Both the position numbers and the translations under genes were made by a program. From the sequence record PV357171.2: 64,000 nucleotides of DNA; one strand, given 5' to 3'. The stretch is from a phage. Below are positions 17,606-57,485 of this stretch, in pieces; position 1 is the first letter of the stretch; each line of letters begins with the position of its first letter. The notes under the pieces are model-generated. The model made no database searches and had not been told where the DNA came from. It worked only from the letters and a program-made list of their open reading frames with translations.

Positions 17606-18087
17606 TATTTAATTAAGTCCTCAACAGATGCATGATGTAGCCACGGCTCAAATAAACCAATTACGATTTCCATGTCTTTCTTATTTAACACCATATGGGT
17701 ACGACTCATTAAGTTGTCAACCATCGGGTCTGAGCTATCCAAAGCTATTAACCACTGTCCTCTGTCTTTTTTGAATATTAATGCAGGTTTGGAGTTCATC
17801 TGCTCACCTTCACGTGAGCACTGCTGCCACCACTTCTCTAGGGTGGATTCACCAACATTAAATAAATTACTTGATAATGCGTCGTCTTTATAATGTTTTA
17901 CTTCAAAACAGTACTTACTGATTTTGCCTGTTTGTGGTGGAAGGTAGATGTCACCTTTCAGTCCGTGGCTCTGGCCAAAAGCACCAGAGCCAGGCACTCT
18001 CTCCCACTCTAGCTTTGTTCGCTCTCTAAGAATATCTCTTACTTGATACTCAGCTCTTTTTCCTTTTTCTCTACTATCTACAGCCAT
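17605..18087 (-). CDS. hypothetical protein, possible PD-(D/E)xK nuclease fold
   Basis: 160 aa; D..E.K-like spacing (GDIYLP...FEVKHYK); weak call. Confidence 0.4.
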   Translation of the reverse strand: MAVDSREKGKRAEYQVRDILRERTKLEWERVPGSGAFGQSHGLKGDIYLPPQTGKISKYCFEVKHYKDDALSSNLFNVGESTLEKWWQQCSREGEQMNSKPALIFKKDRGQWLIALDSSDPMVDNLMSRTHMVLNKKDMEIVIGLFEPWLHHASVEDLIK

Positions 18088-18578
18088 TATTCCTCTGGGA
18101 AATTTAATACTGCGAAATCTCCGAAGTATTCTTTTGCTTTAATATCATAGGCTTTTGCCGCAATTTCTTCAGTTGGGTAGCTACCAATATACTCAGTTTT
18201 TCTGCTGAAAGGATTGCCAATTCTAGCGATATAGCTCCTACCATTAAAATGGACTCCTCTAACTGTATTTGGGCTAGACCTATTAGCCATATTCTGGGAT
18301 CTAGAACAGTCTCTCAGATTTTCTATTCTATTATTACTAACATCTCTATCTATATGGTCTATTTCCTTTGGCCAATAATTATTGAACATAAAAAATATCA
18401 GTCTATGAACATACTCTTGCCTCTGGAACAAAGTAACCCTTAGATACCCGGCCTTATTAGGAGTACCTGCAGGTACTCCTGCCTTCATCCTACCCCTAGT
18501 CTGCTTATTTATTAGCAGTCCATCCCTATAATTATATCTATTCCAAAGGTATTCTACAGTAACTCTTGGATCAGCCAT
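18087..18578 (-). CDS. HNH homing endonuclease
   Basis: Motif YL..HRL.F........IDH.D....N...NLR......N shared with five other ORFs in this window. Confidence 0.7.
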   Translation of the reverse strand: MADPRVTVEYLWNRYNYRDGLLINKQTRGRMKAGVPAGTPNKAGYLRVTLFQRQEYVHRLIFFMFNNYWPKEIDHIDRDVSNNRIENLRDCSRSQNMANRSSPNTVRGVHFNGRSYIARIGNPFSRKTEYIGSYPTEEIAAKAYDIKAKEYFGDFAVLNFPEE

Positions 18579-34885: not shown

Positions 34886-35344
34886 TTAATTTGGATAGAG
34901 TTCGGACTTAAAATTAGCCCTAACTTTTTTAGCCTCTTCTATAGTATTGCACTGCTGGTACTTACGAATAGATCCTTTCTGCATTAGCACACAATATTTA
35001 TCGCCCCTCATGTAGATATTAGGCTCGCCCAACTTATTGTCTTTACGCACATTAATATTGTGCATTTGCTTAGATCTATTGGAGTCTTCTAAATTCTCTA
35101 TAAAGTTGCAATCTTTAATCCTGTTTTTGTGGTCTATCTCTTCTGGTATGTACCCCTTATGATATAAGAATACCAGCTGATGCTCTCCCCAGTGCCTACG
35201 CTTAAACCCTATTCTTATATACCCTTTATGTTTACCCCCGGCAAACTTACCTACTAGACTCTTCTGTCTTGTTTTCTTCCATTTAAGATGGCCTGTTTCA
35301 GGATCATACTCAAAAGCCTCTCTAACCTCTTCCTGTGTTATCAT
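34886..35344 (-). CDS. HNH homing endonuclease
   Basis: GYIRIGF...HQLVFLYHKGYIP..IDHKNRIKDCNFIENLE motif. Confidence 0.7.
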   Translation of the reverse strand: MITQEEVREAFEYDPETGHLKWKKTRQKSLVGKFAGGKHKGYIRIGFKRRHWGEHQLVFLYHKGYIPEEIDHKNRIKDCNFIENLEDSNRSKQMHNINVRKDNKLGEPNIYMRGDKYCVLMQKGSIRKYQQCNTIEEAKKVRANFKSELYPN

Positions 35345-35582
35345 TTTCTTTAATCAATTCTCCTAATTCTCTATAGATTTGATCTAACTCAAAAGATATA
35401 CGTAGTGATATGCTTTGCTTTCTCTGCTTTAGCAACCATGCGCCTATGCCATTTATGGATGCTAGTCTAGCAGGAACCACCCTACATAGCTTCTCCGAAG
35501 TATCATAAACAGGAACTTTGCGTTCTTTTACTGGAAACTTCCTTGTTTCCCATTTTTTATTCTTCACTGTCATTTCTAGCAC
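35322..35582 (-). CDS. hypothetical protein
   Basis: 86-aa ORF overlapping neighbours. Confidence 0.35.
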   Translation of the reverse strand: MLEMTVKNKKWETRKFPVKERKVPVYDTSEKLCRVVPARLASINGIGAWLLKQRKQSISLRISFELDQIYRELGELIKENDNTGRG

Positions 35583-38346: not shown

Positions 38347-38843
38347 AACAATACTCCTGTGTTGGAAATGAAATAAGTTTTCTTTAGGACTATTCAGAAA
38401 GAATAGAACAACTGTTACTGTCAATTTCTCAACAAATTAATCGCAAATACTGAAGTGGGGTGGCAACTTCCACTTTCACGCTACACTGCCGCTTCACTAT
38501 ACCGCACAAATCCTTGAGGATGGCCGCTAAGCCAGATTTGCTCACCTAATGCTTCATGTACTAGCTCATACTAGATGCAGTATACCTTACGTCATCACTT
38601 CTCAGAGTTTTTCACTCTTCCCGTCTCACTTCACAACCACCTCACACTAGGTTGCTTCGAGGCCTTACCAGGGTTCCTACGGGGTGTAGATCGCTAAGTA
38701 TTCTATTAACTATTTGTTTAAAAACTAACACGTAACAGTTAAAACAACCCTTAATGGGGCAGCCTAACTGTTCCGTATCGCGGATTGTAAACAAGAAAAA
38801 TTAGCAAAATCAGTTTTTACTAATGTCTCTCAATTATGGGAAT

Positions 38844-38881: not shown

Positions 38882-39334
38882 TTACTGGATTGATTCCCTA
38901 CCGTATAATTGACCTCTAAACATCTTGGCCATAGAACATGCAACCTCATAGTTATCATATGTTCCTTTAACTATACGTTTACGGTTAATAGTAAATACTA
39001 CTTGCCAGTTCTTACTACCAGAAGGGTAAACATGCATTCCTTTCTTATACTTGATATTTCTTAGATTACCGGATACTGTCTGCTCTCTAAGATTTTCAAT
39101 ACGATCATCACCTTTTACAGTATTCACATGATCTACTAAATCAGGTAAGTATCCGTGATGCATTAAGAAGATAGCTCTGTGTCGGAGCATAGTTCTACTC
39201 CCTAGAGAAATACGGTAATAACCATTTCCCGTTGAAACACAACATTCCTTGCCTGCATTTCTTCCTGTAGTTCTAAATAATTTTCCATCTTCATATCGGA
39301 AATTATCTAAAAGTTCCTGTTGTGTGAGCGACAT
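38882..39334 (-). CDS. HNH homing endonuclease
   Basis: HNH motif (HRAIFLMHHGYLPDLVDHVN....DDRIENLRE); start at ATG 39334 after GGAGG. Confidence 0.65.
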   Translation of the reverse strand: MSLTQQELLDNFRYEDGKLFRTTGRNAGKECCVSTGNGYYRISLGSRTMLRHRAIFLMHHGYLPDLVDHVNTVKGDDRIENLREQTVSGNLRNIKYKKGMHVYPSGSKNWQVVFTINRKRIVKGTYDNYEVACSMAKMFRGQLYGRESIQ

Positions 39335-39473
39335 CTTTACCTCCAATACATATATTATTACATAATCCACCCAATTTGTCAATGACAATTTATTCATACT
39401 GTCAATTAACTGGAAAGATTATATAATAATCCGAGCCAAAATGACTCGGTAGTCAGAGTTCAGCTAATAAAAA

Positions 39474-42561: not shown

Positions 42562-44388
42562 TTACTTAAGATTTAAGTGTTTTACTCTACCAAGTACTTC
42601 TTTTTGTTTCCCAGAATTGAAAGGCCTACTGCCCGGGGATCCCAGGTACCCGCAAACCCTACGTGTAACCTCTATTTCTTCAGATCCACAACTCGGACAT
42701 ACAAACCCACGTTCAGAGGCAACAGATTCACCCATATACCCACAGTTGAAGCACTCATCAATTGGTATATTAACACCAATATAATGACTACATTCTAGTC
42801 CCTTATCTACTACGTATTCAAGAGCTTTATGGAACTTTTTCATTTGTGGTAGTTCCACAAACGATATATTACCACCATTAGCTATTTTGGTGAAATGAGC
42901 TTCATACTCAAATTTAGTATCCGGAGCTACCTTCTCCCTTACGTCCAAATGATGACTATTAGTGAGATAGCCTTTATCTGTTAGCCAAGAATACTCAGGG
43001 AACCTACGTTCCAGTAGTTTATTAAAGCGATTACATAGAGACTCACTAGGAGTAGCATACAAGCTAAACCCAAGATTAGTCTCATTAGCTTTAACTTCGC
43101 AACGATTTTTTAGGTGAGTAAGAACTTCCTCTGTAAATTCAATACAGTCCCTATGAGTCTGCGGTAAACTAAACATTATTTGGCACATCTCATAGACCCC
43201 AATATACCCAAGAGATACAGAAGATCTACCCTCAAAAATTGGCCATACATACTCTTCCCTATCTAAACGCACACCAAAACCACCGTGCATATAAAGAATA
43301 GGGGCTTGTTTAGCCTTCACTTTCTTAAGTCTATCCAAGAAAAAATCATGAGCTTCAAAAGCCTCATCCACATATTTGTCCAGAATATCCCAGAAATCTT
43401 CAAAAACCCCATCTGCCTCAGCAGCAACCATAGGTAGATTAATAGACACTACACCTAAATTATTGCGCCCTGCAATTTCTCCGGAGGGGATAGCAGATAA
43501 AAAGCTACGACAACCCATAGGGGCTTTAAAATCACCAGTAACAGCTATAACTTTCTCATAGCTTAAATAGTCTGGGTACATACGGGTAGCAGAACACTCA
43601 AGTGCTAGCTGTTTTATATCATAGTTAGGATCGCCTGGATTTTTATTTAACCCTTCTTTAACTGAGAATACTAGTTTAGGGAAGATAGGGGTTGACTCGG
43701 CAGCACCTAAACCTTTAATACGATTTTGGAGGATGGCTTTCTGAATCATCCTTTCCTCCCACTCCTGACCTAATCCAAAGCCAAGCGTAACAAAAGGGGT
43801 CTGCCCGTTAGAGTTAAATAATGAATTAGTTTCATACTCTAGAGCTTGGAATGCATCATAACACTCTTTTTCAGTAAGCTCAGTAGCATACACAGCAGCT
43901 TTTCTTTCATCCTTGAGCCAACGTAGCCCACGACCCAGATGTTTATTGTAAGACTTTCTGACATACGGGGCTAGAACCTCGTCGATACGATCAATAGAGG
44001 TACCACCATACTGAGCACCAGATACTTGGGCAATAATCTGAGCAGTGATTGCACATGCAGTAGTTATGGATTTAGGAGTTTCAATATTTGCATTACCGAT
44101 TTTAGTACCATTCTTCAGCATGCCCCCCAGATCTACTAAACAACAGTTGGTGTACCCTTGTGCTCTGTAGTCCATGTCATGAATGTGTATTTTACCTAGA
44201 TTATGCGCGTCTAACAGGTGTTTAGGTAATTCTTGCGATACTAAATACTTGTTAATTTCCCCAGCTAATAAGTCCCTTTGAGTATGGAACATCTCACTAG
44301 GCTTATTAGCATTATTATGTTGTAAGTCTTTATCCGCAGTTAGAGTGAGCAGACCTTTGCAATTTTCAATTAATTCATTCTCTGTCAT
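42562..44388 (-). CDS. nrdD: anaerobic ribonucleoside-triphosphate reductase (class III)
   Basis: C-terminal CxxC...CxxC zinc site (CFNC...CPSC) and glycyl-radical motif RVCGYLGS. Confidence 0.8.
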   Translation of the reverse strand: MTENELIENCKGLLTLTADKDLQHNNANKPSEMFHTQRDLLAGEINKYLVSQELPKHLLDAHNLGKIHIHDMDYRAQGYTNCCLVDLGGMLKNGTKIGNANIETPKSITTACAITAQIIAQVSGAQYGGTSIDRIDEVLAPYVRKSYNKHLGRGLRWLKDERKAAVYATELTEKECYDAFQALEYETNSLFNSNGQTPFVTLGFGLGQEWEERMIQKAILQNRIKGLGAAESTPIFPKLVFSVKEGLNKNPGDPNYDIKQLALECSATRMYPDYLSYEKVIAVTGDFKAPMGCRSFLSAIPSGEIAGRNNLGVVSINLPMVAAEADGVFEDFWDILDKYVDEAFEAHDFFLDRLKKVKAKQAPILYMHGGFGVRLDREEYVWPIFEGRSSVSLGYIGVYEMCQIMFSLPQTHRDCIEFTEEVLTHLKNRCEVKANETNLGFSLYATPSESLCNRFNKLLERRFPEYSWLTDKGYLTNSHHLDVREKVAPDTKFEYEAHFTKIANGGNISFVELPQMKKFHKALEYVVDKGLECSHYIGVNIPIDECFNCGYMGESVASERGFVCPSCGSEEIEVTRRVCGYLGSPGSRPFNSGKQKEVLGRVKHLNLK

Positions 44389-45046
44389 TGATTATTTCCT
44401 CGATAAACCTTGCTACTATTTCTGGCTCAATACTAAAAAATTCTGTAGCACCATCAAAATCTTTGTACTGACAATTATATTCCTTAAACTGTAAATGGGC
44501 CTCTCTTTCAATACGCATAGCTTTTGATCTATCTGAAAAGCTATATTCCTTAAATATTTTTAAATCATGTATGTTAGAAGAAGTTTTAATATCTCTGAGT
44601 CTATCTTTAGTTCTGCTAGACACCCCTATTTTGGTTCCCACACTACTTATTAAAATATATACGTTAGTAGGATAATTATCCTTCTCTAATAAACATATAG
44701 GACAACCAGAATTATGATTTCTAACACTATCAAGTGTAGACTCCCATCTATGATTATTCTCACAGCTGAACATAATTTTACTCTTAGAATTGATGTATTT
44801 ACCTTCCATCTTTATTCCACGAGCAGCTAAGGATTCATTTACCTCTTTAAGATCTAAAGTACGACTAGCACAATAAGGGCAACCTCTCCCACCTTTTACA
44901 TTATCTACTCTAGCCTCCCAGATATGTCCATTAGAGCACTTAAATACAGCATTGGATTTAGCTGATATATACGTGCTTAGCATAATTATTCCTCTGGGAG
45001 CAAGTGTTAAGTTCACATCTTCTGTAGTTATTTTCTTTCTTACCAT
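44375..45046 (-). CDS. T5orf172/GIY-YIG-like domain protein with N-terminal duplicated zinc ribbons
   Basis: Two C..H...C..C repeats, then NVYILISSVGTKIGVS..R block resembling the T5orf172 (GIY-YIG superfamily) domain. Confidence 0.5.
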   Translation of the reverse strand: MVRKKITTEDVNLTLAPRGIIMLSTYISAKSNAVFKCSNGHIWEARVDNVKGGRGCPYCASRTLDLKEVNESLAARGIKMEGKYINSKSKIMFSCENNHRWESTLDSVRNHNSGCPICLLEKDNYPTNVYILISSVGTKIGVSSRTKDRLRDIKTSSNIHDLKIFKEYSFSDRSKAMRIEREAHLQFKEYNCQYKDFDGATEFFSIEPEIVARFIEEIINDRE

Positions 45047-46379: not shown

Positions 46380-46409
46380 CCTGGGTATGAAAATACTCGG
46401 GCCTTTTCT
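46380..46409 (+). terminator. rho-independent terminator with GAAA tetraloop
   Basis: 9-bp stem (two G-U pairs) CCTGGGTAT / ATACTCGGG, GAAA loop, then CCTTTTCT. Confidence 0.5.
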
Positions 46410-46424
46410 ATCAGAAAATTTTAT

Positions 46425-46453
46425 TTGCCTAATGACAGATAATAAAGTAGAAT
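46425..46453 (+). promoter_or_regulatory. candidate promoter (TTGCCT, 17 bp, TAGAAT) upstream of nrdA
   Basis: Hexamers with 17-bp spacer; weaker match than the main family. Confidence 0.35.
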
Positions 46454-46491
46454 ATTCCTTAAATCCTGATAACTATAAAAAGGAAAGCCAA

Positions 46492-48822
46492 ATGAGCCAT
46501 CGCATTGAAAAAGTAATTAAACGTGACGGTACTGTAGAAGACTTTGCTCCTGAAAAACTCAATGGTTGGGCAGAGTATGGTTGCAAAACAGTTGATGTAA
46601 GTTGGTCAGCCATTACTATGGCTGCTCAAAAAACTCTGCCTAAGGGGGTTGTAGATTCCGACACTCTGATGGACGCATTAATTAAAGCTGCTGAAAGTCT
46701 TATCAAAGATAACCCAGCATACGATGTGCCAGCAAAGGAATTACGTCTTGCGCAAATGCGTAAACGCCTTTACGACTCTTTCGAACCACCTTCTCTACGC
46801 TTCTTCCATGACCATATGGTTAGCGTAGGTGCATGGGAAGACATGAGTGCATGGATTACCGATGAGCAGTTCGAAGCTCTGAATCAGGTTATCGACCATG
46901 ATCGTGACCGTCTTTTTACTAGTGGTGGACTGAAACAGTTCTTTGATAAGTATTCCCGTCGTAACATAGCCACTGGTGAAATTTATGAAACTCCGCAGTT
47001 TGCCTACATGGGTATGGCAATGGCGATGTTATCTCAACCTAACTGGACAATTCTAGATGCAATCGACCTCTACAACGCAATGTCACTCCACAAAATCAAC
47101 GTTCCTACGCCGCCACTGGTTGGTCTGCGCTCTAGTGACCGTGGATTTGCTAGTTGCTGCCTCGTGGATTCCACTGACACGTTGGATTCAATCGACACCG
47201 CCGAGCACATCGTCTTCAAAATGGTCGCAGCCAGAGCGGGAATCGGGTATCATCTTGAAAGCCGATCAATTGCTGATCCGGTGCGAAATGGGGCATTCCC
47301 GCATTCCGGAAAACTGCCATATTATCGACACATTGACCGCTCAGTAAAGGCCAATACTCAGCAAACTCGTGGTGGTTCTGCCACAGTGTCTTATCCGTAC
47401 TTCGACCCTGAAATCATTCAATTGATGCAGGTTAAGCAACAACGTGCTACAGATGAGAATAAAATCGATAAGATGGATTATTCTCTGAGCTTCAACAATC
47501 TTTTGTTAAAACGTTATCTGAAAAATGAAGATATTACGCTAATGTCATACTTCTATGCTCCAGAAGTTCATGAAGCGTTTTATAGTGATGACGAGGCTAA
47601 ATTTGAAGAAATCTATGTGGCAGCGGAGAAACGTGTGGCATCTCTTACAAAGATCGACCATGAAGGAAAAACAGTTCCAGCAGCTCCTAAAGTCTCTGCA
47701 AAAGAAATCCTAGATACTTGGCTACGTATCCGAATGGAAACAGGACGTATGTATGCCCACCACATCGGGGAATCTAATCGTCACGGTAACTTCCTTGATC
47801 CGATCCGTATGACAAACCTTTGTGTTGAAATTACTCAGCCTACGCGCCCGTTCCACCACATTACAGAGTTGTATAAGACAAAAGAACAACTTGATCAAAT
47901 GAAGCCGGAGGATATTGGTGAAGTATCTCTGTGTAACTTAGGTGGTGTTGTACTTGGACGCATGGAATCTCTGGCTGAGTGGGAAAAAACTTGCTACATC
48001 CTCCTGAAATTCGTTGATACAATTATTGAAATTCAGGATTACCCATTCCCAACTATGGAATATACGGCTAAGAAACGTCGTAATGTTGGTATTGGTCTGA
48101 TGAACGCAGCAGGTGCAATGGCAGCAGAAGGTCTGGCTTACGAAGGTATTGAAGCACGTAACTGGATTCATCGTGAAGCTGAAAAATTGTCCTACTTCCT
48201 GCATAAAGCCTCTGTACGTCTAGCCAAAGAGCAAGGTGCATGTGAGTGGTTTGATCGTACTAAACCATCTAAAGGAATTCTGGTAATCGACACGTACAAG
48301 AAAACTGTTGATGAACTGGTATCCGTAGGTCTAGAAATGGATTGGGAGTCTCTGCGTGCAGATATTCTGAAATACGGTATGCGTAACTCTGTTCTGACTG
48401 CGCAGATGCCGGGAGAAAGTTCTTCCGTTCTATTAGGGGTTACTAACTCTATTGAACCACCTCGTAAGATTGTATCTATCAAGGGTAGTGCAGTGAATAA
48501 AGTAATTGCAATTGCTCCAGGTGCAACCGACTGGGAAACGTTAATGAGCTATAAACTGGCTTATGATATTGATCGCACTGAGTGGATCAAGTGGAATGCC
48601 GTTTACCAAAAATTCTTGAGTCAGTCATCAAGTTTCCAGATGTATTATGATTACTCTAAATTCGAGAATGAAATCATCCCTGGCCCAGTAGTAATTCGTG
48701 ATTTTATGACTGCGGTTAAGTATGGCATAAAAACCTGGTATTATGCTAACTTTAACACTGCGAATGGTGGAGGAGCTGGTGAGGAAGCAGCGGGTTGTGC
48801 TTCTGGTGGTTGCCAGTTATAA
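46492..48822 (+). CDS. nrdA: ribonucleoside-diphosphate reductase large subunit (class Ia)
   Basis: ATP-cone N-terminus, active-site NLCVEI, C-terminal Cys pair (CASGGC); ATG at 46492 after AAAGGAAAG. Confidence 0.85.
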   Translation: MSHRIEKVIKRDGTVEDFAPEKLNGWAEYGCKTVDVSWSAITMAAQKTLPKGVVDSDTLMDALIKAAESLIKDNPAYDVPAKELRLAQMRKRLYDSFEPPSLRFFHDHMVSVGAWEDMSAWITDEQFEALNQVIDHDRDRLFTSGGLKQFFDKYSRRNIATGEIYETPQFAYMGMAMAMLSQPNWTILDAIDLYNAMSLHKINVPTPPLVGLRSSDRGFASCCLVDSTDTLDSIDTAEHIVFKMVAARAGIGYHLESRSIADPVRNGAFPHSGKLPYYRHIDRSVKANTQQTRGGSATVSYPYFDPEIIQLMQVKQQRATDENKIDKMDYSLSFNNLLLKRYLKNEDITLMSYFYAPEVHEAFYSDDEAKFEEIYVAAEKRVASLTKIDHEGKTVPAAPKVSAKEILDTWLRIRMETGRMYAHHIGESNRHGNFLDPIRMTNLCVEITQPTRPFHHITELYKTKEQLDQMKPEDIGEVSLCNLGGVVLGRMESLAEWEKTCYILLKFVDTIIEIQDYPFPTMEYTAKKRRNVGIGLMNAAGAMAAEGLAYEGIEARNWIHREAEKLSYFLHKASVRLAKEQGACEWFDRTKPSKGILVIDTYKKTVDELVSVGLEMDWESLRADILKYGMRNSVLTAQMPGESSSVLLGVTNSIEPPRKIVSIKGSAVNKVIAIAPGATDWETLMSYKLAYDIDRTEWIKWNAVYQKFLSQSSSFQMYYDYSKFENEIIPGPVVIRDFMTAVKYGIKTWYYANFNTANGGGAGEEAAGCASGGCQL

Positions 48823-48830
48823 TAAAAACA

Positions 48831-48858
48831 AGGAGATCTTCGGGTCTCCTTTTTCTTT
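48831..48858 (+). terminator. rho-independent terminator with UUCG tetraloop
   Basis: AGGAGATC-TTCG-GGTCTCCT followed by TTTTCTTT. Confidence 0.7.
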
Positions 48859-48868
48859 GAAATTTTAC

Positions 48869-48897
48869 TTGCTAATCGCTACCTGATTTGCTATAAT
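48869..48897 (+). promoter_or_regulatory. early promoter for HNH gene between nrdA and nrdB
   Basis: TTGCTA, 17 bp, TATAAT. Confidence 0.6.
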
Positions 48898-48903
48898 ATC
48901 TAT

Positions 48904-49401
48904 ATGAAATTAACACAGAGTAGATTAAAAGAGCTAATCTCCTATGACCCTGAAACTGGCGAATTTACCTGGCTCCCAAGAAAAACTTTAGCAAAGCATT
49001 TATGGAATGCTAAAGCAGGAACCTACGATAAATTAGGGTATCTTCGTATAAAAGTTGAAGGAGTTCAATATTTAGCTCATCGCCTAGCCTTCTTGTATAT
49101 GACTGGAGAAATACCGGAAGGAAAAATCGACCATAAAGATACTAATCCGTCTAATTGTGCCTGGGATAATCTCCGTGAAGCCACGAGTTCTCAAAATTCT
49201 ATGAACTCGTGTGCAAGATCGGATAACCAGCTTGGAATGAAAAATATTCGTGTAAAAGGCACTTCATTTCAGGTTAGGATAGGCAAAGACGGCAAATCTT
49301 ATACAAAAACTTTTAAAACCCTAGAAGAAGCTATAGAATGGAGAGACACCAAACTACTAGAACTTCATGGGGACTTTGCAAACAACGGAGAAGCTAAATG
49401 A
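48904..49401 (+). CDS. HNH homing endonuclease inserted between nrdA and nrdB
   Basis: GYLRIKVEGVQYLAHRLAFLYMTGEIPEGKIDHKDTNPSNCAWDNLRE motif. Confidence 0.7.
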   Translation: MKLTQSRLKELISYDPETGEFTWLPRKTLAKHLWNAKAGTYDKLGYLRIKVEGVQYLAHRLAFLYMTGEIPEGKIDHKDTNPSNCAWDNLREATSSQNSMNSCARSDNQLGMKNIRVKGTSFQVRIGKDGKSYTKTFKTLEEAIEWRDTKLLELHGDFANNGEAK

Positions 49402-50543
49402 CTACTTTACTTAACTTAGAATGGGATCATACTAACGCTGACCTTTTCCTGGGAGATTCTCTTGGTATCGCAGACTATGTTCGTGTTGCTCATCCCGAGC
49501 TAGAACGACTCGCCCTACTGCAGAGGAGCCAGTTTTGGACTGAGACAGAAATCAGTTTAGAAGCTGATAAAAAGCAGTGGGGTAATCTCCCGCGTGAAAT
49601 TCAGGAAATTACACTCCTGAACTTAGCATGGCAAACTCAAACTGATTCCTTTATCAGTCGTGCTCCTGAAGCAGCTATTATGCCACTTGTAAGTCGCCCA
49701 GAATTGGAAGGTATGCTCAAGCAGTGGAGCTACTTCGAAGATCTGCATAGCCGTGCATATAGTAATATTATTCGTAATGTGCTGACTGATCCAGCAGAAT
49801 TTATTGATTCTGTAACCAAAAACCAGGAAGCATTCGCACGCATCGCTGATTCTGTTGAGCTATTTGATGAGCTATATCAGTTAGGTCAGTATTTCCTAGC
49901 AGTACGTGATCATCGTGGCGATAATACTTACCCAGAAACCGAGTTTCCTGAAGTTAAACGTGAAACTCAGGCTAAGCTATTAGACGCTTACTTTGCAATC
50001 TACGGTCTGGAAGCAATGCAGTTTTACGCATCCTTTGCATGTACCTTTGCATTAGCGGAGAACGATATTCTGCAAGGTATTGCTAAAAACCTGCAATTAA
50101 TCGCTAAAGATGAAGCTCTGCACACTCAGATGTCCAAAGCAATCATCCAGATTATGTTTCAGCAATTTGACAAAGATCTGGTAGATGAAGCAGTGGCTAA
50201 AGCACCAGCACAGCTCCTGAAAACTCTGAAAACTGAAATTGAATGGGGTCATTTCATTTTCAAAGGTCGTAGTCTGATTGGTTTAAATGCAGAACTTCTA
50301 GAAGAATATCTGTATTTTGTGGGACGTAATGCATTTATGCACATCGGTGTAGAATGGCCTAGTCATTTACCAGTAATCACCAAAAACCCTATTCCGTGGA
50401 TCATGAACTGGTTGGATACCACTTCTTTACAGCCTGCTCCACAAGAAATCCAGATTGGTGCAGCATATCGTGTAGGTCAAGTCACCGAAACCTCTACTGA
50501 TACTCTGAAAGATCTGGGTAATGAATTTGGAGATTTCTTATGA
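49398..50543 (+). CDS. nrdB: ribonucleoside-diphosphate reductase small subunit
   Basis: Di-iron ligand helices (E..H pairs) and C-terminal acidic tail; follows nrdA. Confidence 0.8.
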   Translation: MTTLLNLEWDHTNADLFLGDSLGIADYVRVAHPELERLALLQRSQFWTETEISLEADKKQWGNLPREIQEITLLNLAWQTQTDSFISRAPEAAIMPLVSRPELEGMLKQWSYFEDLHSRAYSNIIRNVLTDPAEFIDSVTKNQEAFARIADSVELFDELYQLGQYFLAVRDHRGDNTYPETEFPEVKRETQAKLLDAYFAIYGLEAMQFYASFACTFALAENDILQGIAKNLQLIAKDEALHTQMSKAIIQIMFQQFDKDLVDEAVAKAPAQLLKTLKTEIEWGHFIFKGRSLIGLNAELLEEYLYFVGRNAFMHIGVEWPSHLPVITKNPIPWIMNWLDTTSLQPAPQEIQIGAAYRVGQVTETSTDTLKDLGNEFGDFL

Positions 50544-51073
50544 TTACAGCAATGTATGCAGTTGGGCCGAATGGGGAGTTCGGCCTCCGCGGTAAACTTC
50601 CATGGGGTTCCTTCAAAGAAGAACTAGATGCTTTCTATTCTCAACTGGACGTGTTGAATCCAGATAACATCATCATTGGTGCGGGTACTTATTTAGCACT
50701 TCCAGAAGTTGTTCGGCAACGTATGATTGGAGAATCAGACCTCTTTATTCGTGCGGATCGTCCTCTGCCTGATGATATTAAACAGGGTATCTATACCCCA
50801 ATTTCAAAGATTGGGGATACATTACCTACATTCTTAAAAGATCAGCAAACAGTAGTTCTAGGCGGTGCAACATTACTGTACGAAATGTATATTCATGGGC
50901 ATATTGAAAGCGCTTTTGTATCCACAATCTTTAGTAATCAAAAACTAGAGGCAGATGTACATCTGGATAATACGATTCTAGATTACAACTATGAATCTAC
51001 TCGTTTAGTTTACGCAACTGGCGCAAACAGTGATAACAGCCTGCGATTTGTACAGGAATTGGTTACTTATTAA
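50540..51073 (+). CDS. dihydrofolate reductase
   Basis: N-terminal IxAM..N..IG...LPW motif of DHFR; 177 aa; beside thymidylate synthase. Confidence 0.7.
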
Positions 51074-51927
51074 TGGATCAGTATATCGAAGTTGGAAAAC
51101 GTATTCTATCAGAGGGTCAGTGGGTAACGAATCCCAGAACAGGGGTTCGTTGCCTCACCATTATTAACGCAGATTTTACTTTTAATGTAGGTGCAGGTGA
51201 ATTTCCACTTATTACTACCCGTAAGGCGTTTGCAAAACAAGCAATAATGGAAATGATTGGGTATCTACGTGGGTATGATTCAGCAGCACAATTCCGCGCT
51301 ATTGGTGTTAACACATGGAATGCTAATGCAAATGAAAACTTAGCTTGGCTAGACAATCCATACCGTAAAGGTGAGGATGATATGGGACGAGTCTATGGTG
51401 TTCAAGGACGTCAGTGGACTAATTCCGATGGTCTTATGTTTGACCAACTAGCCAAGATTTATCATAACCTGAAGAAGGGCATTGATGATCGTGGGGAAAT
51501 TCTAACGTTCTGGAATCCTGGAGAGTTCTCGAAAGGTTGCTTACGTCCATGTATGCACACTCATCAGTTCTCTATTTTGGGGGATACATTATACCTGAAC
51601 TCTTTCCAGAGATCTAATGACTTCCTGTTAGGCCAAGTATTTAACATGGTTCAGTGCTACACGCTTCTAGCATTAATGGCACAGATTACAGGCCTTAAAC
51701 CAGGGATTGCACGCCAGAAGATTATCAATCTTCATATCTATGAGGATCAGTATAATGTTTTGATGGAGCATAAGCAATTCGATCGTGAACCTTTTGCACC
51801 TCCTACTCTAGAAATCAACCCAAATATCCGAACTCTAGAGGATGTATTGACCTGGGTAAGCAAGGATGACTTTACTGTTCGTGGTTACGAGCACCACCCT
51901 GCTATTGCATATCCATTCACTGTGTAA
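51073..51927 (+). CDS. thyA: thymidylate synthase
   Basis: Active-site region [10 protein letters not shown] and conserved ThyA blocks; 284 aa, uninterrupted. Confidence 0.8.
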
Positions 51928-51944
51928 TTCAAATAAAATATTAC

Positions 51945-51973
51945 TTGCTTGATGTCTAAATTTATAATATAAT
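51945..51973 (+). promoter_or_regulatory. early promoter
   Basis: TTGCTT, 17 bp, TATAAT. Confidence 0.55.
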
Positions 51974-52006
51974 ATTTCCTATATGTATATTATAGGGGAT
52001 TTACTT

Positions 52007-52561
52007 ATGATTATAAAAGAAGGATGGACAAAAGAGTCCGCACGAGCTAGATTTATATACAACCCTGATACAGGGGAGATTTTTAACAGAGTAAATAGCG
52101 GACGTGCTAGAAAAGGAGAATTAGCCGGGTATATTGATAAATCTACGGGGTATGTTAGACTAGTATTATCTGGTAAAAGGATTAAAGGACATCAGCTAGC
52201 CTTCTTATATATGGAAGGCTATATACCTGATACCATAGACCATATTAATAGAATAAAATCAGATAATAAATGGACTAATCTAAGGGAATCATCGGCTCAA
52301 GAAAATGCTAGAAATATTAGGGCAAGAAGTAAATCGGGCTATTTAGGTGTTGGTTGGTATAAGCCAACCCAAAACTGGTGTGTTTATACTAAGGATAAAG
52401 ATGGAGTCCAAGTTAACGGAGGCTACTTTGCATACAAAGAACTAGAGTTAGCAGTTCAAAAGGCTAATGAACTTCGCTTACAGTTACATGGAGAAAACGC
52501 TGTTATAGAAGCTTTTGATTCCACAAAACCACTTCCCACATTAGAGGATCTTAATAAATGA
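52007..52561 (+). CDS. HNH homing endonuclease
   Basis: GYVRLVLSGKRIKGHQLAFLYMEGYIPDTIDHINRIKSDNKWTNLRE; ATG at 52007. Confidence 0.7.
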   Translation: MIIKEGWTKESARARFIYNPDTGEIFNRVNSGRARKGELAGYIDKSTGYVRLVLSGKRIKGHQLAFLYMEGYIPDTIDHINRIKSDNKWTNLRESSAQENARNIRARSKSGYLGVGWYKPTQNWCVYTKDKDGVQVNGGYFAYKELELAVQKANELRLQLHGENAVIEAFDSTKPLPTLEDLNK

Positions 52562-56604: not shown

Positions 56605-56633
56605 TTGCTAATCTACTAAATTATATGTATAAT
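56605..56633 (+). promoter_or_regulatory. early promoter
   Basis: TTGCTA, 17 bp, TATAATATATTT. Confidence 0.65.
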
Positions 56634-56663: not shown

Positions 56664-57485
56664 ATGGGTAAATTACAAAAACAAATACTACCACATATAG
56701 ATTATATTCGAGAAATTATAGAGTATAATCCTTATACTGGTAAATTATTTTATAAGCCTAATAAATACAAGAATAAAACTTGGCACACCCTATATGCTGG
56801 GAGAGAAATATGTAGTAAGAACTCTGATGGGTATATCAGAGTTAGTTTGCTCTTAGATAATAAACCCACAATTATTTATGGACACCGAATAGCGTGGTTG
56901 CTCCATTATGGTGAAGAGCCTCCTTATATGATCGACCATATAAATACCATACCGTGGGATAACAGAATTGTTAATCTAAGAGAGACAAATTTTAAGTTAA
57001 ATAGGATTAATACTAATAAAACCGTAGGTGTAGAACTCCTCCCCGAGGGTTTTGTGTATAGCATTACATTAGGTGGAAAGTTTTTCGTATCTCCTGGCTT
57101 CACCACTTTCGAACAAGCTAAAGGGGAAAGAGAAAAACTAGTAAATGGTTTATGTAATGCAGAAATTGGGAAGCAGACCAATATTCTAATAGACGATGTT
57201 AGAGATCTACCTGAAATGTCCATTATTTGTCGTACAGTTATAGGTGCGCTGGAACTATCAGATATGTTTAGTTTTACTGGTTCCTACCTATTTATGGACT
57301 CAGATCTAGGAGACCCAGAAGTACAAGGAAAAGACTTATTAGATTATATACTCTTTTTAGGTCAAAGACCTTTGAAAGTAGTTCTAGTAACATCCAACCC
57401 TGTTGACGCAGAGTACATGAGAGGTACTCTTACGTCTTATGGTTATCGAGAAAATCCCAATAGGTTAGAATATGACCTATTTTAA
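56664..57485 (+). CDS. HNH homing endonuclease with C-terminal extension
   Basis: GYIRVSLLLDNKPTIIYGHRIAWLLHYGEEPPYMIDHINTIPWDNRIVNLRE. Confidence 0.65.
   Translation: MGKLQKQILPHIDYIREIIEYNPYTGKLFYKPNKYKNKTWHTLYAGREICSKNSDGYIRVSLLLDNKPTIIYGHRIAWLLHYGEEPPYMIDHINTIPWDNRIVNLRETNFKLNRINTNKTVGVELLPEGFVYSITLGGKFFVSPGFTTFEQAKGEREKLVNGLCNAEIGKQTNILIDDVRDLPEMSIICRTVIGALELSDMFSFTGSYLFMDSDLGDPEVQGKDLLDYILFLGQRPLKVVLVTSNPVDAEYMRGTLTSYGYRENPNRLEYDLF

Follow-up and report, generated by a model that had tools for sequence, protein, structure and literature searches.

Phage T4 encodes MobE, a free-standing HNH endonuclease whose gene lies between nrdA and nrdB. MobE nicks phage T2's nrdB at nucleotides 122-126 and drives the co-conversion of the flanking sequences, and its gene has no promoter of its own but uses resident transcription (Wilson & Edgell 2009, PMC2790892). 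As for T5-like phages, ORF96 of AKFV33 has been described as a homing endonuclease gene between nrdA and nrdB, whose product is 42% identical to the T5 enzyme and was compared with T4 mobE (Niu et al. 2012, PMC3326045). According to the BF23 genome paper, homing-endonuclease genes account for most of the local differences between T5-like genomes. Homing endonuclease genes (HEGs) were also reported to cluster by ribonucleotide reductase (RNR) and replisome genes and to bracket exchanged segments, and, depending on the phage, the HEGs at equivalent sites are homologous or unrelated (Barth, Dunham & Seed 2023, PMC10448857). The work concerns ICP1 and the families T5orf172 and IPA-HNH; T5-like phages are mentioned for T5orf172 only.

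Here we analysed a window of 64,000 nucleotides, the whole stretch of phage DNA considered, from record PV357171.2. It carries six HNH endonuclease genes, one of which (48904-49401, plus strand) lies between nrdA and nrdB. The same site is occupied in AKFV33 (ORF96) and Spc35 (SPC35_0087), whose proteins are 98.8% identical to that of the window. It is also occupied in T5, where the gene called 'P-TflVIII' represents a different lineage, with 42% identity, its own AAGGAG ribosome-binding site (RBS) and a TTG start codon. This kind of selfish gene is well known, and an essentially identical gene at the nrdA-nrdB site was reported from AKFV33 in 2012. The new details are the capture of a promoter and leader, a probable leaderless start, a patch of silent substitutions in nrdB and an HNH-cREC fusion. 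The published descriptions of the AKFV33, Spc35 and T5 enzymes make no mention of the first three.

The window gene resembles mobE in being a free-standing HNH gene between nrdA and nrdB that lacks a promoter of its own and relies on resident transcription. The nick made by MobE falls in the 5' region of nrdB in the phage that lacks the HEG. Unlike the window protein, MobE responds to the Pfam HNH model PF01844 and not to HNH_3, there is no detectable sequence similarity between the two proteins, and in T4 nrdB.1 lies between mobE and nrdB. On sequence criteria, MobE is an analogue and not a homologue, and the two genes have come to the same site by convergence. The general picture of free-standing homing endonucleases drawn from T4 is unchanged by our analysis.

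I-HmuI of phage SPO1 is an intron-encoded HNH nickase with a different C-terminal DNA-binding region, unlike the window protein, which is free-standing and has a C-terminal domain predicted to be of the AP2 type. In 2004, Magnani et al. reportedly described HNH-AP2 homing endonucleases of phages and cyanobacteria and proposed them as the ancestors of plant AP2/ERF domains. The same architecture, an HNH domain followed by a three-strand-plus-helix domain, is predicted for the window protein, although the Pfam AP2 model remains unmatched.

Six HNH genes in a T5-like genome

In its nrd region, the window is 95-96% identical to the T5-like phages Spc35, SE11, Th1 and AKFV33 (Demerecviridae, Markadamsvirinae). 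The gene order is that of T5 in reverse orientation: tail genes, D14/D13, DNA polymerase, ligase, obp-like helicase, nrdD, phoH, nrdA, nrdB, frd, thyA, rnh, sleB and tRNAs. An Rfam scan of the whole window returned tRNAs only. The HNH_3 domain was detected in exactly six ORFs (Pfam, above the gathering score; E 2e-10 to 1e-16, 40-60 bits for a cut-off of 24.8), and each also matches PHROG 99 'HNH endonuclease' along its entire length. They are the ORFs that a previous sequence-only reading of this DNA had picked out. A profile of the six run against all six reading frames of the window yielded no further copy or remnant at E<1. Regarding their coordinates, the start at 52007 given in that reading is the likely one, whereas the positions that it gave for minus-strand genes are the 3' ends of the ORFs. 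The six genes are as follows:

18087-18578, minus strand: HNH ORF (HNH_3, PHROG 99) between D13 (exo2) and D14, using D14's former ATG as its start
34886-35344, minus strand: HNH ORF (HNH_3, PHROG 99) downstream of the obp-like helicase gene, its start overlapping the end of a conserved 86-aa ORF
38882-39397, minus strand: HNH ORF (HNH_3, PHROG 99) upstream of the obp promoter; gene probably 38882-39334, with its own promoter TTGACA-17-AATAAT (39382-39354) and Shine-Dalgarno sequence GGAGG
48904-49401, plus strand: HNH ORF (HNH_3, PHROG 99) between nrdA and nrdB
51983/52007-52561, plus strand: HNH ORF (HNH_3, PHROG 99) between thyA and rnh; gene probably 52007-52561, with its own promoter (TTGCTT at 51945-51950, 17 nt, TATAAT at 51968-51973)
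56664-57485, plus strand: HNH ORF (HNH_3, PHROG 99), continuous, with an additional cREC_REC match; read as an in-frame fusion of 273 aa between HNH (residues ~1-170) and cREC_REC (~172-273)

Pairwise comparison of the six proteins, which the sequence-only reading had proposed as a check, gave 28-37% identity, making them old paralogues rather than recent duplicates. The D-H and N-L motifs are invariant across all copies. The final catalytic Asn is kept in five of them, and the 34886 copy has Q-M-H-N at this position. Five of the genes lie between intact genes; the sixth, at 56664, forms one reading frame with cREC. In all likelihood, judging from their sequences, the six copies are intact, free-standing homing-endonuclease-type genes of the I-HmuI-like HNH_3 class.

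The closest solved relative of the 48904 protein (HNH_3 E=1e-16, Pfam) is I-HmuI (PDB 1U3E, E=9e-4), and its residues D76, H77, N89 and N98 align with D74, H75, N87 and N96 of that enzyme. A structural model predicted from the six window paralogues (pLDDT 77.7) comprises an N-terminal HNH domain and a C-terminal three-strand-plus-helix domain. The latter is predicted to be a DNA-binding domain of the AP2 type, an assignment made at the fold level from a model built from only six sequences. A Pfam scan of the C-terminal halves at E<=10 returned no AP2 or other significant DNA-binding family, and a Foldseek search of the model against the PDB gave no significant match. Homology to T4 MobE was also considered and was rejected (BLASTP E=40; different Pfam HNH models).

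Anatomy of the insertion between nrdA and nrdB

The structure of the insertion was established by aligning the window with Spc35, in which the site is occupied, and with ABTNLsp9 and ESCO30, in both of which it is empty. The region comprises:

46387-48822, plus strand: nrdA, class Ia ribonucleotide reductase large subunit, annotated nrdA in relatives
48830-48858, plus strand: resident intrinsic terminator (9-bp stem, TTCG loop, T-run)
48869-48897, plus strand: resident early promoter of the nrdB-frd-thyA operon (TTGCTA, 17 nt, TG-TATAAT)
48904-49401, plus strand: free-standing HNH endonuclease gene, predicted HNH-AP2, 165 aa, lineage 'type A', equivalent of AKFV33 ORF96
49387-49390, plus strand: nrdB RBS GGAG inside the final HNH codons, read from the sequence
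49398-50543, plus strand: nrdB, its start overlapping the HNH stop (ATGA, 49398-49401)
49410-49601, plus strand: part of the nrdB 5' region with mostly silent substitutions, a patch that goes with HNH occupancy

As the sequence-only reading had it, one HNH gene lies between nrdA, which ends at 48822, and nrdB, whose ATG is overlapped by the HNH stop codon. The distance between nrdA and nrdB is 575 nt in the window versus 106 nt in HNH-free relatives. The '80-bp gap' of that reading therefore does not describe this interval, but it fits the spacing of 81 nt between the nrdA stop and the HNH start. That the HNH gene has its own promoter directly after the nrdA terminator was not borne out, as both elements are resident and are kept in HNH-free phages, where the promoter drives nrdB. 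The terminator is identical in the HNH-free phages ABTNLsp9 and ESCO30, and the promoter at 48869-48897 is kept nearly base for base in empty-site genomes, upstream of the nrdB leader. A putative early promoter is also annotated at the same site in the T5 record.

In the empty genomes, a 29-nt leader, TCCTGAAATAGTGAGAAAGAGGAAAATCA, separates the promoter from nrdB. In the window, CTAT and the HNH ORF stand in place of this leader, in an exact splice with the -10 box of the nrdB promoter on one side and the start codon of nrdB on the other. The HNH ATG is found 6 nt past the -10 box and has no Shine-Dalgarno sequence. In T5 promoters, the usual spacing between the -10 box and +1 is 7 nt, and with the ATG 6 nt after the -10 box, +1 is predicted to be at the A of that ATG. 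The HNH mRNA is therefore probably leaderless, as read from these spacings. A literature search on leaderless homing-endonuclease mRNAs found nothing directly relevant. At the other end of the gene, the last HNH codons (…AAC GGA GAA GCT AAA TGA) provide a GGAG motif 7 nt before the nrdB ATG. With this rebuilt GGAG and the overlapping ATGA stop/start, the nrdB-frd-thyA operon would stay expressed. An (A)GGAG motif is present at an equal distance from the nrdB ATG in every HNH lineage that occupies the leader.

Occupancy of the site in relatives

Among 27 T5-like genomes of IMG/VR, the site between nrdA and nrdB is empty in 15, and it is occupied by an HNH gene of the window type in 2, of the T5 type in 5, of the S113 type in 4 and of the SE24 type in 1. 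In INPHARED, 32 of the 440 matching records have the window-type gene there; like all INPHARED and IMG/VR counts given here, these numbers include duplicate and fragmentary records, many phages are recorded in both collections, and the genomes are not phylogenetically independent. The left junction, TATAATAT followed by CT, is common to the other leader-occupying lineages. The occupants found in T5 (174 aa), phiLLS (166 aa) and SE24 (172 aa) have a leader of ~25 nt that contains AAGGAG or GGGAG. Their start codon is TTG or GTG, and all three genes end in (A)GGAG just upstream of nrdB. As for the S113 lineage (160 aa), it is inserted upstream of the promoter, with the terminator replaced and the nrdB leader intact. 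The existence of two alternative insertion points at one site is a new detail. All four combinations of presence and absence of the nrdA-nrdB and thyA-rnh copies exist, and the HNH proteins group by site at identities of at least 60%.

A silent patch at the start of nrdB

The 5' region of nrdB differs between occupied and empty genomes. The sequence CTTAACTTA is present in 8/8 type A or B genomes with an occupied leader, versus CTAAACCTG in 15/15 empty ones, counts in which the genomes are not phylogenetically independent. In all 15 empty genomes, the start of nrdB reads …CTAAACCTGAA…. Between nucleotides 85 and 204 of nrdB, there are 0-10 differences among the empty-site Tequintavirus genomes, and 13-27 differences, almost all silent, in genomes of types A, B and D. 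Between nucleotides 91 and 180, 19-26 of the 90 positions set the window apart from each genome in the comparison; the protein is unchanged in five of the six comparisons and has one amino-acid change in the other. The silent run at 49482-49601 tracks HNH occupancy. The patch is not one haplotype shared by type A carriers, since the window and AKFV33/SE11 differ at 19 of these 90 positions.

Such a patch would be expected of an enzyme that has its recognition site in the nrdB leader or 5' region, with carriers being immune or co-converted. From its sequence features, the patch is a candidate for a target or immunity region, or for a co-conversion tract. Different donors may have left it behind by co-conversion, with no selection for immunity involved.

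Lateral spread and mosaicism

The type A HNH gene is 98.4-99.0% identical in Spc35, AKFV33 and SE11, which belong to Tequintavirus, and in SmurfNell, fuchur and SB13, which belong to Epseptimavirus. Next to the gene, identity in these six genomes is 80-86% over 323 nt of nrdA and 85-86% over the initial 200 nt of nrdB. The junction that makes the start probably leaderless is the same in the three Tequintavirus and three Epseptimavirus genomes. A comparable profile is found for the cassette between obp and ORF102, which is 97-99% identical in L065, with sharp drops to ~81-83% on both sides and flanks that are ~80-87% identical. At both sites the HNH gene is thus far more conserved than its surroundings, which points to lateral spread. 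Overall, HNH cassettes reach 97-100% identity in genomes with flanks of only 80-90%.

Within ~250 bp on each side of the nrdA-nrdB site, nucleotide diversity is about twice the background (28 genomes). Apart from its first ~200 nt, the nrdB gene of the window hardly differs from that of L014. The final ~270 nt of nrdA (48548-48822) are ~80% identical to AKFV33/SE11 and 95-98% identical to other genomes. With a nrdA 3' end unlike that of the genomes of its own HNH type, the region seems to have arisen through more than one exchange. These ~270 nt match the S113-type carriers L029 and L034 (98%) and the empty-site genome L015. The best-matching relative switches every few hundred bp across the entire nrd-thyA region. 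Thus, HNH sites do coincide with mosaic boundaries in the alignments, as the sequence-only reading had considered likely, although T5-like genomes are finely mosaic throughout. The 38882 copy, for instance, sits exactly at the start of two obp-leader alleles that are ~50% identical.

Homing and alternative explanations

On the strength of the domain matches and genome comparisons, we consider it quite probable that the 48904 ORF and its five paralogues are free-standing homing-endonuclease genes with a C-terminal AP2-type domain in a T5-like phage. In a mixed infection, the HNH enzyme would be made early from the nrdB promoter, probably off a leaderless mRNA. It would recognise the HNH-less allele, most likely at the nrdB leader or in the first ~200 nt of nrdB, and nick or cut it. 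Recombinational repair off the HNH-carrying genome would then copy in the HNH gene with a few hundred bp of flanking sequence. Carriers would be protected because their leader is gone and the 5' region of nrdB bears silent substitutions. Repeated rounds with different donors would generate the local mosaic.

Alternatively, the HNH genes might be passive cargo comparable to morons, spread by ordinary, frequent homologous recombination in which the nuclease is not involved; it might be inactive or serve another purpose. The regular change of the best-matching relative over the whole region, beyond the surroundings of the HNH genes, is in keeping with this idea. Nevertheless, none of the six copies has lost the catalytic D-H...N...N/H residues, and dN/dS values of 0.03-0.16 (five pairwise comparisons in which synonymous divergence was measurable, from five of the six sites) indicate that the proteins are under purifying selection. 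The insertions are found at exact gene boundaries with rebuilt translation signals, and peaks of diversity flank the nrdA-nrdB site. Furthermore, the characterised relatives, I-HmuI, the T5 F-Tfl enzymes and T4 MobE, are site-specific nickases. Altogether, passive spread appears improbable.

That the proteins are instead housekeeping phage enzymes, such as virion-DNA nickases or packaging-associated HNH proteins, is very unlikely: T5-like virions do carry specific single-strand nicks (PMC10644984) and I-HmuI-type enzymes are nickases, but each HNH gene is missing from ~90% or more of T5-like records, the nicks are described as general to T5 and BF23, the D13-D14, thyA-rnh and ORF080-sleB copies do not occur in T5, and none of the six genes adjoins the terminase. 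A literature search on the T5 nicking enzyme found nothing directly relevant.

In practice, the six genes mark where T5-like genomes exchange segments, and they explain much of the difference in gene content between biocontrol phages that are otherwise collinear. They also represent a possible source of site-specific nickases. Several of the resulting hypotheses are cheaply testable, namely a probable target in the first 200 nt of nrdB, the leaderless start and the fusion annotated elsewhere as an intein.

The other insertion sites

All six sites are empty or otherwise occupied in most relatives, and several of them carry unrelated HNH lineages, depending on the phage, which agrees with the description of these genes as free-standing homing-type genes at polymorphic sites. 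Identical HNH content at identical positions in all relatives, the observation named beforehand as able to refute that description, was not seen, as the window-type genes are present in 12-43 of ~365-490 INPHARED records per site.

The 18087 copy starts 3 nt past the D13 stop codon, and a 7-bp sequence, ATGGCTG, is duplicated. It is present in 14 of 442 INPHARED records. In 27 of the 29 IMG/VR relatives the site is empty, D13 and D14 being separated by 2-4 nt or overlapping by 4 nt.

Between obp and ORF102, the window HNH gene (34886) is found in 36 of 490 INPHARED records; in IMG/VR, the site harbours a window-type gene in 4 genomes and a T5-type gene (26% identical) in 3, and it is empty in 25. 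The small ORF at 35322-35582 (minus strand), which encodes 86 aa here and 80 aa in HNH-free relatives, is conserved. It overlaps the obp-like gene at its end as well as the first part of the 34886 HNH gene, and it is unannotated in the T5 record.

The 38882 copy likely starts at the ATG at 39334, given the GGAGG Shine-Dalgarno sequence, and not at 39397. In addition to its own promoter, its cassette carries its own version of the obp promoter. This gene is present between orf130 and obp in 43 of 437 INPHARED records, and the site is occupied in 5 of 31 IMG/VR relatives. Between the obp promoter and the start of the obp-like helicase gene lies an ORF-free leader of ~420 nt (38425-38840, minus strand), present in all T5-like genomes examined in two forms that are ~47-57% identical. 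The leader gave no Rfam match, and it folds marginally better than shuffled sequence (z=-1.88).

The 52007 copy had been placed after thyA, and it is indeed found between thyA and rnh, with its stop codon overlapping the rnh ATG. Its start is likely at 52007, as read from the sequence. The cassette stands in place of a 93-aa ORF of Spc35 and ABTNLsp9, and the ESCO30 homologue is 75% identical at the protein level. The window-type gene is found at this site in 12 of 365 INPHARED records. The interval between thyA and rnh (51928-52557 in the window; compared in L008-L034) is hypervariable, ranging from 131 to 1144 bp among IMG/VR genomes. Depending on the genome, it is occupied by the 93-aa ORF, one of several HNH lineages, a 192-aa ORF or other small ORFs, and in L033 by a gene for a 257-aa GIY-YIG endonuclease. 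As for thyA (51073-51927, plus strand), two alleles with ~30% protein identity are present in T5-like phages (L008-L034). The window has the Spc35/AKFV33 type and T5 the other, and the allele switch adjoins the hypervariable spot.

Lastly, between ORF080 and sleB the window-type HNH gene (56664) is present in 29 of 442 INPHARED records and in 2 of 27 IMG/VR genomes.

The expression signals of the six genes differ from site to site. The proposal that most of them have their own promoter did not hold, as only the 38882 and 52007 cassettes carry one. Resident promoters are found upstream of the copies at 48904 and 56664. Those at 18087 and 34886 lack a promoter, and they start at or overlap resident coding signals inside operons.

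An HNH-cREC fusion

The 56664 ORF starts at a resident ATG, behind a resident promoter at 56605-56633. In 24 of 27 relatives, a stand-alone ORF of 105 aa encoding a cREC protein is present at the same site. Residues 172-273 of the 56664 product are 52% identical to this stand-alone cREC_REC protein, a predicted cyclic-phosphate phosphoesterase. The fusion is kept at 98% in at least two other genomes. The T5 annotation shows only ORF079, of 55 aa, at this position.

We read the 56664 ORF, from its sequence and domain matches, as an HNH-cREC fusion rather than an intein. An intein inserted after residue 2 of cREC and removed by protein splicing would account for the continuity of the ORF and for the replacement of the first residues of the resident cREC protein by the HNH part, and the record of phage SelmaRatti annotates the equivalent gene as 'intein-containing hypothetical protein'. 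However, the only Pfam matches are HNH_3 and cREC_REC, with no Hint or intein domain, and the ~170 residues are explained by the HNH-plus-DNA-binding architecture of the free-standing paralogues. Inteins have Cys or Ser at their N-terminus and His-Asn at their C-terminus. The junctions MG/KLQ...GKQ/TN have neither, and we regard protein splicing as highly improbable here.

Several HNH genes appear to use signals of the genes next to them: the type A gene is placed at the predicted +1 of nrdB and contains the nrdB RBS, the D13-D14 copy uses the D14 start, and the 56664 copy is fused to cREC. One could speculate that the HNH genes have captured expression signals of essential genes, so that regulatory or coding entanglement contributes to their retention on top of homing, a possibility that we consider tentative and rather doubtful. 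If true, simple deletion of the selfish gene would damage an operon that the phage needs, and leaderless translation would keep the dose of nuclease low.

Other homing-type genes

A seventh homing-type gene, which the sequence-only reading had missed, is present in the window:

44375-45046, minus strand: zinc-ribbon (DUF4379) and T5orf172 (GIY-YIG clan) protein gene, from domain matches

This gene is located directly upstream of nrdD and overlaps its start, and its product has treble-clef zinc fingers. It is found behind a promoter, TTGACT-17-TATAAT (45096-45068), and is absent from T5. The nrdD allele of T5 is a different one, so that aligning the T5orf172-nrdD upstream region of the window with T5 gave no information. 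In the eight IMG/VR genomes with the window's nrdD allele, the position is taken by one of two lineages (95% and ~45% identity) or by a 36-aa remnant.

L125 (IMGVR_UViG_2706796127) harbours a 154-aa HNH gene between cREC and sleB, whose product is 46% identical to the 48904 protein. It shares the C-terminal '...HGDFANKGEK' end with the HNH protein encoded between nrdA and nrdB in the window, which suggests a move of one HNH lineage between sites.
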